Below are positions 403 to 2,930 of a stretch of DNA of 27,885 nucleotides, in pieces. The position numbers and the translations under genes were made by a program. The notes under the pieces are model-generated. The model ran no database searches. It was not told the DNA's origin and saw only the letters and a program-made list of their open reading frames with translations. The stretch's first letter is position 1, and each line of letters opens with the position of its first letter. Source of the DNA: Rhodomicrobiaceae bacterium (lineage in GTDB: Bacteria > Pseudomonadota > Alphaproteobacteria > Rhizobiales > Rhodomicrobiaceae); NCBI GenBank assembly GCA_050288485.1, contig JBNKDX010000001.1, positions 1-27,885 of the forward strand, in the 5' to 3' direction.

Positions 403-961
403 TCAATCCCTTCGAGGTTCGGTACAGCGACCGCGGTCAGGAAGTCTGCCCGGCGGAGGATCGAGCTTGTCGACAAGCTGCTGGTAGACGGCGTCGAAGC
501 CGGGATCGTAGTTGTCCGGATGATCGCGGATCATGGCGATGACCTTGCGGCAGCAATCGGCGGCCTCGCGGTTCTCGCCGCGGGCCTCATGCACCATGCC
601 GAGGCGGTCATAGCCATCGTGCTCGTCAGGGAACCGCTCCAGGAGGTCGCGCGCGGTCTGCTCGGCCTCGTCGAGTTTGCCGGCATGGACGAGGTCGACC
701 ACGGCGTTGGAAGCGTCCGTGAGTTCTTCGGCCTCGTCGTAGACGGTGGCGAGCATGTCGGCGAGTTCCTCCACAGCGCTGGGCAGGCGTGGTGGCGAAG
801 CGGGAGGCTGCACGGCAGCGGCGAGCCGCTCGCGTTTCGCGGCTTCATCATTCGTCAGGCAACGACTCTTTGTTTGTCCTACCGCTTCGCTGCTTGAGGA
901 CCTGTTTGTACTTCTTGCCGCTTCCGCAGGGGCAGGGATCATTGCGTCCGGTTTTGGCCAT
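403..961 (-). pseudogene. SEC-C motif + TPR-repeat protein, frameshifted by a ~37 bp insertion
   Basis: ATG at 961 reads [20 protein letters not shown] (SEC-C motif [15 protein letters not shown]). Removing 865-901 joins this in frame to RCLTNDEAAKRERL...GKLDEAEQTARDLLERFPDEHDGYDRLGMVHEARGENREAADCCRK (TPR-like helices) of the 403..942 ORF. Confidence 0.8.
865..901 (-). repeat. Hairpin micro-insertion, family A copy 1
   Basis: Minus strand GTCCTCAAGCAGCGAAGCGGTAGGACAAACAAAGAGT. The 27 bp core is identical to 1900-1926. GTCCT/AGGAC stem with a GCGAAGC cap. Interrupts the SEC-C motif; boundaries +/-1-2 nt. Confidence 0.85.
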
Positions 962-989
962 GGCGGTCAATACGCCGTTGCTCGGAAGG

Positions 990-1706
990 ATGCACACTTT
1001 GTACCAAGCTCTATTGTCTGACGCCGGATTTCATGCCCTCCTGCTCGCCTTCGATCGCGATCTTGCCAATGCCTGCCGGCGCAAGGGTTGCGCCTTGCGC
1101 CGCGGAGCTCTGCACTCCGCCCGGTACCGGCGCAAACCACGCGGCCGGCTCTGCAAGCTTGGCGAGGAGCACGACTGGCGTTTCAGCTATTGCTGCGCCC
1201 GCGACGGCTGCCGCACGCGGGCGACGCCGCCGTCGCTGCGCTTTCTCGGCCGCAAAGTCTATCTCGCCGCCATGGTGGCGCTGGCTGCGATCATGCAGCA
1301 TGGGATCACCGGGGCGCGGATAAGACAGCTGCACAAGGCCGCACGCGTCAGCCGCCGGACGGTTGCGCGCTGGCGGCTGTGGCGGCGCAGCACTTTCCCC
1401 GCAACCCCATTCTGGCGGACTGCGTGTGCCGCATTCATGCCGCCGGCCGATGAGGATCGTCTGCCAGCCTCGCTGCTCAAGCGCTTCTCCGATGACGGCA
1501 CATCCTGTCCGGACACCCCTGGTGCTGCACAGCTGCTGCGATGCTTGGAAGCGATGTTTACTGATCGCGACCAGGAGCGACGTTTATCTGGTCGCGACCA
1601 AACAAGTGTCGCTCCAAGCGTCGCTCTGAATCGCAGCCACAAACAGCTGATGGCGCTGTTGCGCTTCATCGCCCCCCTCACCGGAGGCTGCGAGCACGCT
1701 CAGTAG
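990..1706 (+). CDS. Cys/His-rich, HTH-containing transposon-associated protein (DUF6431-like, inferred) with a ~46 aa in-frame foreign insert; probably decayed
   Basis: ATG 990 after GGAAGG. Motifs HSARYRRKPRG, RFSYCCARDGCRTRATPPSLRFLGRKVY and HTH-like VSRRTVARWRLW. Lies directly upstream of the transposase. The insert lies between RFSDDG and HKQLMALLRF. Confidence 0.6.
   Translation: MHTLYQALLSDAGFHALLLAFDRDLANACRRKGCALRRGALHSARYRRKPRGRLCKLGEEHDWRFSYCCARDGCRTRATPPSLRFLGRKVYLAAMVALAAIMQHGITGARIRQLHKAARVSRRTVARWRLWRRSTFPATPFWRTACAAFMPPADEDRLPASLLKRFSDDGTSCPDTPGAAQLLRCLEAMFTDRDQERRLSGRDQTSVAPSVALNRSHKQLMALLRFIAPLTGGCEHAQ
1500..1637. repeat. Nested composite of family B hairpin units (~138 bp, in frame)
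   Basis: Outer inverted repeat GCTGCGAT (1535-1542) / ATCGCAGC (1630-1637). Inner units GCGAT-gtttactg-ATCGC (1551-1568) and GCGAC-gtttatctg-GTCGC-gaccaaacaag (1577-1606). Perfect palindromes TGTCCGGACA (1506-1515) and TGGTCGCGACCA (1589-1600). Confidence 0.7.
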
Positions 1707-1825
1707 CGGTCTTCTCAGATCCGCAGAGGATGCCCGTCGCCGGAAAAATCTGCGTCCTTTATCGTCTGTGCGCCCCGATCCACAGGAGTGCCGATGTGAT
1801 GGAGCAGGAGCGGAGTCCTGGAGTC

Positions 1826-1863
1826 CTTGTTGGCCGCGATCAGACAAGCATCGCGGCGAAGTC
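1826..1863 (-). repeat. Hairpin micro-insertion, family B (38 bp including a 4 bp AGTC duplication)
   Basis: AGTC at 1822-1825 and 1860-1863. Stem GCCGCGAT/ATCGCGGC with a 9 nt loop. Removal restores GV-HERW. Confidence 0.85.
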
Positions 1864-1899
1864 CACGAGCGGTGGGCGCACCTGCGCTTCTCCGTTACC

Positions 1900-1934
1900 G
1901 TCCTCAAGCAGCGAAGCGGTAGGACAGCAAAAAA
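1900..1934 (+). repeat. Hairpin micro-insertion, family A copy 2 (35 bp)
   Basis: GTCCTCAAGCAGCGAAGCGGTAGGACAGCAAAAAA. Removal restores FSVT-AQLLAAPPPKG. Confidence 0.85.
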
Positions 1935-2090
1935 GCACAGCTGTTGGCCGCTCCCCCGCCAAAGGGCGAACTGCGCGCCGCCATCGAGGCGCTCGCCGCT
2001 CAAACCTGGCGCCACCCGGCCACAGGCGATCCTGTCCGCTTCGGCTTCTCCACCATCGAGCGGTTGGTGCTACCGTGCCCTGAAGGAACG

Positions 2091-2126
2091 GTTTTTGTTG
2101 TCCTACCGCTGCGCCACTTGAGGACG
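2091..2126 (-). repeat. Hairpin micro-insertion, family A copy 3 (36 bp, ACG flanking duplication)
   Basis: Minus strand CGTCCTCAAGTGGCGCAGCGGTAGGACAACAAAAAC, 24/27 identical to the copy 1/2 core. Removal restores ALKER-SDPVGVLRR. Confidence 0.85.
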
Positions 2127-2154
2127 CAGTGATCCCGTCGGCGTCCTGCGCCGC

Positions 2155-2190
2155 ATACCGTCGCGATGCTTGTCTGATCGCGACCAGCAA
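2155..2190 (+). repeat. Hairpin micro-insertion, family B (36 bp, GCA flanking duplication)
   Basis: Stem GTCGCGAT/ATCGCGAC, loop GCTTGTCTG (same loop as the 1826-1863 copy on its own strand), tail CAGCAA. Removal restores LRR-KIRNN. Confidence 0.85.
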
Positions 2191-2463
2191 AAAATTCGTA
2201 ACAATGCCGGCCGGCAGATCGCGATGAGCGGCGCCGTCCGGCAGGCTGTGCTGGCGCAATACGCCGCGCACAAAAGCTGGAGTGTCCAGCTCCATCACGA
2301 CAATCTCGCCGCTCTGGCTGAGACGAGGCCCGACCTGCAGCCGGCGCCGTCCTACACCACGCTGCGCCGCTTCTTCAAAGCCAACGGTCTCGACCGCCGC
2401 CGCGTTACATCGCGCCAGACCGAAGGCGCCGCCCGCGCCGAGGACCGGCTCGCTGATCGCGAG

Positions 2464-2897
2464 ATGGGCGACATGTTCGGCGTCGAACTGCGGCCAACCA
2501 ATCGCTGGGGCGGCGCCAAGATGCTCCGTGACCGTTGGCAGCCCCACATCGACGCCGCGCTGTCGCGCCCCGTCCTCATCGTCGACGAGGCGCAGGAAAT
2601 GCCGCCCGCCGTACTCGCCGAACTGCGTCTCCTGTCCTCCGCACGTCTCGACAGCCACATCCTGCTCACCGTCGTCCTCGCCGGCGACGGCCGCCTCGTC
2701 GAACGTCTGCGCTCCGACGAACTGATGCCGCTCGCCAGCCGCATGCGCGTCCGCCTCGCCCCAAGTGAGCGTTTATCGCGAACGGTAAACGTTCGCTTAA
2801 GCGCGCCACGCCGGAGGAACTGCGCGAATACATCGAGCACGGACTGCAGAAAGCCGGCGCCGCCAAGATGATGACGCCCGAGCTGGTCTCTACAGTG
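2464..2897 (+). pseudogene. ExeA/IstB-like AAA+ ATPase, internal fragment
   Basis: Walker B region RPVLIVDEAQEM, followed by LLTVVLAGD and LASRMRVRL. After removing 2762-2796 it continues ALKRATPEELREYIEHGLQKAGAAKMMTPELVSTVSE. Walker A and the C-terminus are missing. Confidence 0.8.
2762..2796 (+). repeat. Hairpin micro-insertion, family C copy 1 (35 bp)
   Basis: CAAGTGAGCGTTTATCGCGAACGGTAAACGTTCGC forms a 12-14 bp stem with G-T wobbles and a CGAA loop. Removal restores the ATPase frame. Confidence 0.75.
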
Positions 2898-2930
2898 AGT
2901 GAGCGCTTGACGCTCACGATAAACGTTCGC
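2898..2930 (+). repeat. Family C copy 2 at the ATPase/IS4 junction
   Basis: AGTGAGCGCTTGACGCTCACGATAAACGTTCGC, 27/33 identical to 2764-2796. Confidence 0.7.

Follow-up and report, generated by a model that had tools for sequence, protein, structure and literature searches.

At the start of a 27,885-nucleotide contig from a bacterium of the family Rhodomicrobiaceae, a transposon relic is interrupted again and again by hairpin-forming sequences of 35–38 nt. What are these inserts, how did they arrive, and did they help to kill the element that carries them? An earlier note, made from the letters of this stretch (the window, by which we mean all 27,885 nt), had taken them for ultra-short non-autonomous mobile units, and had suggested an undescribed kind of element or a process that inactivates transposable elements. 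Here, we find that the six inserts at issue are real, recent insertions of small palindromic repeat units, and that such units are repeated genome-wide. They are probably micro-elements resembling repetitive extragenic palindromes (REPs) or MITEs (miniature transposable elements with inverted repeats), moved in trans, filtered by selection and amplified by slippage within arrays and by rides on insertion sequences (ISs) and MITEs; the relic would then be neutral ground, filled further by local or nested re-insertion.

Discrete insertions in a transposon relic

The window is the entire contig C1 of genome G000, a metagenome-assembled genome (MAG) of 2.38 Mb in 432 contigs that is 70.5% complete. 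For a housekeeping protein encoded in the window, the nearest relatives with a name are MAGs labelled Rhodomicrobiaceae and Hyphomicrobiaceae. Within the genus, G000, G001 and G002 were compared, all of them fragmented MAGs (70%, 93% and 98% complete). Insert boundaries come from an alignment of window positions 400–2960 with the orthologous relic on contig C132 of G002, whose flanks are 82–87% identical. This alignment holds six clean gaps, of 37, 38, 35, 36, 36 and 35 nt, at the positions at which the earlier note had placed its six discrete inserts, all of which are absent from the G002 relic. Logan contigs of public sequencing runs served as independent sequence support, X1 being the probable source run and X2 a run from a separate study. 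The six inserts and the other units of the relic are listed below, with folding energies and with z scores against shuffled sequence.

865–901, minus strand: unit A1, family A (core GTCCTCAAGCAGCGAAGCGGTAGGAC, A-rich tail); 37-nt gap in G002:C132, the junction being ambiguous by 2 nt; nhmmer E = 1e-9.
1533–1632, plus strand: nested composite of B/D-type units in one long hairpin; DNA fold −30.1 kcal/mol, z = −6.2.
1826–1863, minus strand: unit B1, family B; stem of 8 bp (GCCGCGAT/ATCGCGGC), loop GCTTGTCTG, A-rich tail; 38-nt gap in G002:C132; fold −9.4 kcal/mol, z = −2.5.
1900–1934, plus strand: unit A2, family A; 35-nt gap in G002:C132; spanned by error-free X1 and X2 contigs.
2091–2126, minus strand: unit A3, family A with a diverged loop; 36-nt gap in G002:C132, its junction repeating CGT; contigs of X1 and X2 span it.
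2155–2190, plus strand: unit B2, family B; 36-nt gap in G002:C132; fold −8.1 kcal/mol, z = −3.2; spanned by an X1 contig.
2762–2796, plus strand: unit C1, family C variant with a near-perfect 16-bp hairpin; 35-nt gap in G002:C132 and in G000:C333; fold −10.8 kcal/mol, z = −4.1.
2896–2932, plus strand: unit C2, canonical family C (GTGAGCG-CTTGN-CGCTCAC then GATAAACGTTCGC), where the ATPase relic meets the next relic; fold −8.4 kcal/mol.

The units thus integrate as discrete pieces into pre-existing sequence. Excision of each insert restores the local frame, as had been claimed: a gene with SEC-C and TPR motifs becomes one open frame, the N terminus of a transposase becomes colinear with its homologue save for a frameshift near 2063, and the ATPase relic reads through. 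The sharpest case is C1, which has no counterpart in the paralogue on contig C333 of the same genome; measured against that copy, exactly 35 nt are inserted, and the junction is ambiguous by 1 nt at most. The nested composite lies inside 141 extra in-frame bases (1497–1637), that is, 47 codons more than in the paralogue, and similar composites occur on contigs C258, C380 and C129 of G000.

The inserts might be artefacts of assembly or chimerism in a MAG. The window sits at a contig end in an assembly of 432 contigs, and positions 1–77 of another contig of that assembly (C35) are an exact duplicate of window positions 1868–1944, unit A2 included, beyond which the two diverge. This match suggests that C35 stems from a second copy of the relic or from a strain variant. 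Logan contigs from the two studies nevertheless span A2, A3, B2 and C1 without differences: those of run X1 cover 1868–2487 (A2, A3 and B2), 2713–2927 (C1) and 1315–1590, and those of run X2 cover A2 and A3, with none of the contigs listed explicitly spanning A1 or B1. The same families also recur in three genomes of the genus, both at sites that are orthologous and at sites that are not. We consider the chance of an artefact negligible. Relatives in runs X3 and X4 are without the inserts, and one of these shares ~96% identity in a stretch nearby; A3 is missing from the 96%-identical relative of run X3.

The clustering described in the earlier note exceeds chance by far. At least eight units lie in 2.1 kb, against 0.05 expected genome-wide and 0.4 if 12% of the genome tolerates insertions (P ~1e-8 or lower), and an nhmmer search of window 3.7–27.9 kb finds no A or B copies, in line with the absence noted before. 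Within 1826–2190, the units stand in symmetric order: B on the minus strand, A on the plus strand, 156 bp, A on the minus strand and B on the plus strand. The DNA between them is ancestral, so these four units were inserted separately; their symmetric order may be coincidence or a sign of paired insertion.

Repeat families and the places of their copies

The division of the units into three families, their occurrence in both orientations and the A-rich tails of A and B all hold. Unit length is 35–39 nt across families. Family A is CGTCCTCAAGCAGCGAAGCGGTAGGAC followed by about nine A-rich bases, with a 5-bp stem and a 16-nt loop; its copies start with CGTC, TGTC or AGTC, mostly one of the first two, and the GTC pairs with the GAC of the 3′ arm. 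GTAG occurs in this family solely within the 3′ stem arm (GGTAGGAC), and families B and C lack it. Family B reads CGCCGCGAT-GCTTGTCTG-ATCGCGGCC and ends in an A-rich tail, with an 8-bp G+C-rich stem, a 9-nt loop and CCA before the tail; it starts with CGCC, TGCC or CGTC, mostly paired. A related family, D (GCGACGCTTGTCTGGTCGC), builds longer composites such as that at 1533–1632. Family C has termini AGTGAGCG and TAAACGTTCGC, inverted over 9–13 nt, around a variable middle, and takes the form of a 16-bp hairpin in C1 and of a 7-bp stem with a 5-nt CTTGN loop and no CCA in C2.

Folds of B and C are more stable than those of shuffled sequence (z = −2.5 to −4.1), which is not so for A. Among 42 B units, the inner six stem pairs hardly vary, three being invariant. 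The outer pairs show covariation: there are 11 double changes, and not one of 500 shuffles attains the value observed. In other genera, single copies of A-like units have compensatory changes in the stem. By eye, an A-like unit also lies in frame in cysS of two species of another genus (L021/L027, that is, G073:C32 and G062:C226, near position 2005), its outer stem pair changed from T–A to G–C on both sides.

Two short motifs stand out. The hairpin loops of B, D and C2, families otherwise unrelated, share GCTTGTC, with CTTGT in the loop (window 1836–1854 and 2901–2919, for example). By a rough estimate, the chance of such sharing is ~2%, and the heptamer is a possible candidate for a common recognition site. 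In either orientation, the sequence of family A's 3′ arm is (G)AGGAC; it stands 4–9 nt before start codons at G000:C124:3425–3495, L080:1493–1540, L066 and L089, where it could act as a putative Shine–Dalgarno sequence.

Copy numbers differ between families and genomes. G000, G001 and G002 hold 12, 5 and 25 copies of family A and 23, 47 and 40 of family B. A wider census took in 75 genomes from within the bacterial family and, from elsewhere in the order, 195 genomes of 56 families. In it, the expansion of A and B is limited to this genus, with 0–2 copies in most other genera of the family; matches to the B pattern elsewhere (23 in G004, 12 in G052 and 7 in G005) mostly have a D-type core. The 30-nt C2 core is present in 43 of the 75 family genomes, without a mismatch in most of the copies listed, and in 0 of the 195 genomes from outside the family; PLSDB plasmids hold no copy of the C2 unit. 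Family C is near-invariant across six genera.

In the three genomes of the genus, A and B copies occur as single units, in head-to-tail arrays, upstream of start codons (some directly), in frame in genes and within mobile-element genes, settings that were read from six-frame open reading frames (ORFs) and Pfam tallies, since frame calling from third-position G+C content was too noisy for IS genes. The arrays have a period of 36–38 nt and reach nine units (G000:C377); one in G001 (contig C28) consists of six, five head to tail and one inverted. An origin as CRISPR arrays was rejected, as the units abut head to tail at that period with no spacers. In cellular genes, every unit found is in frame: in a gene with a Nuo51 domain (NuoF-like), at an orthologous place in G000 and G002, in uvrA, in dnaE2, in an imuB-like gene with an IMS domain and in an RND-type gene, the last identified by eye. 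In G002, dnaE2 (L092:1497–1571) and the IMS-domain gene (L120:1497–1566) carry two or three in-frame B units each. The mobile genes entered by A and B units belong to IS3, IS4-like elements with DUF4372, IS1595-like elements, IS256, IS66, ISL3 and IS110 and include a reverse transcriptase. In the sister genomes, ~11 of 51 A/B loci lie in mobile-element genes, which is above the genome share of such genes and compatible with neutral survival if about a third of the tolerated sites are there. The earlier notion of tolerated accumulation in dead DNA therefore fits A and B by this measure, but it does not cover the units that lie in frame in intact uvrA, dnaE2 and NuoF-like genes.

Units vary in presence between congeneric species. 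Beyond the relic, at least nine further loci are filled in G001 or G002 and empty in G000, or differ in unit number; among the former are uvrA, dnaE2 (whose G000 orthologue has an empty site) and several intergenic sites. Head-to-tail arrays grow and shrink, as shared loci with 3 versus 2, 2 versus 1 and ~6 versus 0 units attest, and units persist in frame in some housekeeping genes. In dnaE2, two units repeat together with a flanking AACT, which looks like a tandem duplication of an inserted unit.

Family C has a different address. We examined 23 distinct C2 loci from 12 genomes, found with a stringent search pattern that favours young copies, and for ~20 of them the site is in or at a gene of a mobile element, with at least 11 element families represented, including IS3, IS4/IS5-type, IS21 (IstA and IstB), IS66, IS256, IS630, IS1595, IS110, IS91 and a tyrosine recombinase. 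Even under a null in which ISs make up 30% of tolerated sites, the binomial P is 2e-8. In G000, all five C units are in mobile-element genes: one in the ATPase relic, one at the relic junction and three in genes recognised by eye, namely two istB genes and one of IS630 type.

Units nest in one another and in IS and MITE elements, and they spread as passengers of these. Genome G011 contains ten 100%-identical copies of a 1,492-bp IS3-family element (L156:1022–2513 on contig C2, and nine more), all with C2 at one site; the only unit-free relative in that genome is 85% identical. Its transposase is broken twice, by an in-frame TAA within C2 and by a frameshift elsewhere; the element is therefore dead, and its movement was presumably in trans. 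Translational bypass of out-of-frame units, considered in view of the ten identical copies, was rejected on account of that frameshift. In G073, ~24 of 25 C2 copies occupy one fixed internal site of a ~115-bp MITE-like element, an empty copy of which lies in the window at 3515–3627; almost all copies of this element in G073 hold a C2 unit. Such hitch-hiking explains both the copy number of family C and its near-identity across genera.

The host relic

The first 3.6 kb of the window are mobile-element debris. A more intact copy of the module, on contig C50 of G002, still displays the original order: a divergent SEC-C/TPR gene, a gene with no Pfam hit, an rve-type transposase of 507 aa and an AAA_22 ATPase. 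What the window retains of the transposase ends after ~190 codons and is joined to the final two thirds of the ATPase; this fusion is cut off in turn by an opposite-strand fragment of another IS-like ORF.

403–997, minus strand: SEC-C motif/TPR gene of the module, frameshifted by A1; Pfam finds SEC-C and TPR in the intact homologue, and TPR in the ORF of the window; one open frame without 865–901.
960–1706, plus strand: second gene of the module, with no Pfam hit, open across the 47 extra codons; from the ORF list and comparison with the intact homologue L017:3003–3572.
1730–2460, plus strand: N-terminal relic of an rve-type (Mu-like) transposase; after excision, colinear with the intact 507-aa homologue (Pfam rve, HTH_32).
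2461–2895, plus strand: C-terminal relic of an AAA_22 (ExeA/TniB-like) ATPase; after excision of C1, colinear with the intact L017:5117–5956 (Pfam AAA_22).
2935–3457, minus strand: N-terminal fragment of another IS-like ORF, unclassified; copies 72–75% identical at G001:C173 and G000:C11; no Pfam hit.
3515–3627, no strand assigned: MITE-like element 'E' with terminal inverted repeats GCTAAGCAGA... and no C unit; ~10 copies in G000.

Did the units inactivate this element, as the earlier note had entertained? They did not. The deletion that fuses transposase and ATPase is also present in the insert-free copy of G002, so the relic was dead before the units arrived, or at least before most of them did. 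The 1-nt frameshift near 2063 in the transposase relic is unrelated to the inserts, and the SEC-C gene is the only gene that a unit can have broken.

A search of PLSDB plasmids with the relic ATPase returned only distant likeness, to plasmid ATPases of Cupriavidus and Paraburkholderia. The MITE-like element E (~113 bp) has termini of the kind GCTAAGCAGAC... and ...GTCTGCTTAGC. In public metagenome contigs, depth rises 10- to 100-fold over 854–1007 (the SEC-C motif) and 2856–2932 (C2); both stretches are multi-copy in environmental samples (sediment, marsh, mangrove and peat).

Movement of the units and known short repeats

How, then, do the units reach new sites? In 12 filled/empty pairs, 35–39 nt are inserted per unit, and junction ambiguity ranges from 0 to 5 nt (CGT, AACT, AAT, GGACT or none). 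Neither these pairs nor ~70 flanks contain a constant target duplication or target motif; in consequence, a DDE transposase with a fixed stagger is disfavoured. The 3–4 bp flanking duplications described in the earlier note do not stand, as objective placement leaves 0–5 nt of microhomology that varies in both length and sequence. We also rejected the idea that the A-rich tail arose by duplication of an A-rich target, since most left flanks are not rich in A. The junctions would suit an enzyme acting on folded single strands, or a recombinase; template switching, or capture in the course of repair, could produce them as well.

No enzyme is encoded next to the units, so any mobilisation must be in trans. 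Searches with PF01797 covered G000 and five relatives; in G000, G001 and G002 they return only ordinary IS200-type TnpA proteins with unrelated hairpins of their own, and no REP-associated tyrosine transposase (RAYT); a RAYT protein of G004, used as the query, finds nothing in the genus, including the 98%-complete genome. The sole Y1 transposase signal in G000 is a truncated IS200-type TnpA pseudogene just downstream of a gene that, by eye, is lon (G000:C79:7600–7800). IS91-type Y2 transposases, present in G001, G002, G073 and G011, were rejected as mobilisers, with no units in or beside them.

These searches bear on the possibility that the units belong to a classical REP–RAYT system, driven by an HUH enzyme of the Y1 type that was missed through incomplete assemblies or divergence. 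The units are imperfect palindromes within 20–40 nt, family A contains GTAG and most of its copies start with CGTC or TGTC, the best-defined junction (C1) lacks a duplication, as expected for HUH enzymes, and RAYTs flanked by GTAG REPs do exist in other genera of the bacterial family. However, RAYTs occur in 9 of the 75 family genomes, a distribution that does not follow that of family C (43 of 75), the C-rich genomes G073, G080 and G064 being without one; the left junction has no conserved tetranucleotide, and arrays run head to tail rather than as inverted doublets. We regard such a system as improbable; the mobilising enzyme in this genus is most probably not a RAYT. Spread with no transposition at all, by slippage, template switching, gene conversion or capture of filler at repaired breaks, would account for several features of the arrays and junctions: unit number that varies at the same locus (2 versus 3, 1 versus 2 and 0 versus ~6), a dnaE2 module that repeats its flanking AACT in the manner of a tandem duplication, an empty site that at one locus resembles the 5′ arm of the unit, junction microhomology of 0–5 nt and fuzzy unit ends. 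Yet single units sit at dozens of unrelated sites with flanks unlike any donor, where slippage cannot seed new loci, and unit sequences are near-invariant across genera; as the whole explanation it has, we think, little chance of being right.

The addresses of family C suggest a further possibility, that units, C above all, are aimed at mobile DNA, either by a host process that plugs transposase genes or as parasites of parasites that enter transposing, conjugating or single-stranded DNA, the clustering being the outcome of this targeting. Besides the C2 loci and the five C units of G000, there are two different IS3-family transposases in whose catalytic core an A unit and a C unit sit no more than three codons apart, at least eight units reached the present relic within little divergence, and a published survey saw only fortuitous association of CGTC-tagged REPs with transposase genes (PMC3733652), which makes the C pattern unusual. 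Set against this, A and B fit neutral expectation and are present in housekeeping genes and intergenic arrays; much of the C copy number consists of rides on one IS3 element and one MITE; the stringent pattern enriches young copies, those riding active elements; no target consensus and no candidate effector gene was found; and the relic here was already dead. The targeting of foreign DNA raised by the earlier note thus retains support from family C and loses it for A and B, and we consider it unlikely overall. Doubtful, too, is a broader proposal, that ~36-nt hairpin elements found throughout the bacterial family, independent of RAYTs, prefer mobile DNA (at least 11 IS families, MITEs and the units themselves) as selfish elements or as host defence, by way of an undescribed integration enzyme.

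Movement in trans of REP- or MITE-like micro-elements, followed by selection and amplification, remains the reading that we favour. In this scheme, a trans-acting enzyme would recognise the folded hairpin and integrate the unit with little preference for particular targets and with no constant stagger in its cut; conservation of stem and loop, with the CTTGT loop motif of B, D and C2 as one instance, suggests a single-stranded DNA substrate. Selection would remove copies from essential DNA and leave the survivors to gather in dead transposons, repeats, gene ends and permissive in-frame sites, and the dense cluster in the relic would result from neutral ground together with local or nested re-insertion. 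Several points weigh against this account. No mobilising enzyme was identified and no transposition event was directly observed, and in genomes as fragmented as those of the genus (70%, 93% and 98% complete) a mobiliser could be missed. The hairpin of family A is thermodynamically weak (z about −1), and the fuzzy unit ends and 0–5 nt of microhomology would also fit templated or repair-mediated capture. Neutral survival explains neither the ~20 of 23 C loci in mobile-element genes nor the gain of at least eight units by this relic against none in the G002 copy, and hitch-hiking leaves many independent C insertions in unrelated transposase genes unexplained.

Short palindromic repeats that enter genes, nest and have no known transposase have been described before, as REPs, CGTC-tagged REPs and Rickettsia palindromic elements (RPEs) (Di Nocera 2013, PMC3733652), and the earlier suggestion of an undescribed kind of element has to be given up. 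The kind is known, REP- or MITE-like; families A, B and C themselves are undescribed. The unit sequences were not found in indexed papers or in the supplements of PMC3733652, and the Rfam 15 covariance models give no match in window 1–4000 at E ≤ 1. CGTC-tagged REPs belong mainly to Alphaproteobacteria, have no associated transposase and lie in frame in uvrA, dnaE2 and tRNA synthetase genes (PMC3733652). Similar to them, the units have an alphaproteobacterial host, no linked transposase, a variable first tag base in family A (CGTC/TGTC), CCA after the stem in family B and in-frame copies in uvrA, dnaE2 and a tRNA synthetase gene. By contrast, CGTC REPs have an unpaired tag, 8–9 bp stems starting with AT, 4–5 nt loops and head-to-head dimers (PMC3733652), whereas the present units have a largely paired tag, loops of 9–16 nt (A and B), an 8–10-nt A-rich tail within the unit, head-to-tail arrays and many copies inside transposase genes.

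GTAG REPs, bacterial interspersed mosaic elements (BIMEs) and REP doublets forming hairpins (REPINs) (PMC2817692, PMC3116915) are comparable in being 20–40-nt hairpin repeats that are held to be non-autonomous and form clusters and mosaics; the composite at 1533–1632, a long hairpin of inverted units, is itself REPIN-like. The units part from REP–RAYT systems in that the genus yields no RAYT and GTAG is not terminal and unpaired, and from REPs and REPINs in that they are mostly single or head to tail, with only the composites inverted, and are to a large share intragenic or in ISs. Like RPEs, they are palindromic and lie in frame in protein-coding genes of an alphaproteobacterium; accumulation in IS relics is, to our knowledge, not a noted feature of RPEs. 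RPE-4 and RPE-6 have been classed as CGTC REPs, and RPE-1 is a longer palindromic insertion than the units here (PMC3733652). With MITEs, the units have in common that they are non-autonomous, that family C has 9–13-nt inverted termini around a variable middle and that units ride in or on ISs; unlike MITEs, they have no target duplication of fixed length (at most 1 nt in C1 and 0–5 nt elsewhere), no parent IS with matching ends was found, and IS91 and IS200 copies carry no units. Typical MITEs are larger than units of 35–39 nt, and the earlier picture of discrete, recent, non-autonomous hairpin units much shorter than typical MITEs is supported. Cyanobacterial small dispersed repeats (SDRs), reportedly very small palindromic mobile repeats of ~21–27 nt that nest in one another and within other repeats and have no known mobilising enzyme, differ in belonging to another phylum and in their unrelated sequences.

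The 2013 survey left the alphaproteobacterial CGTC families without a mobilising enzyme (PMC3733652). For the movement of REP-like repeats without a RAYT, the present lineage provides unusually clean material, with dozens of filled/empty pairs between congeneric genomes, several families of equal length and a family C that is near-invariant across six genera and confined almost wholly to mobile elements. Whether units are aimed at mobile DNA or merely survive there, and which gene co-varies with them, can be tested here. Finally, units add 12–26 codons to uvrA, dnaE2 and other genes, and some stand directly before start codons. In these uncultured bacteria, proteins and regulation alike can thus vary through them.

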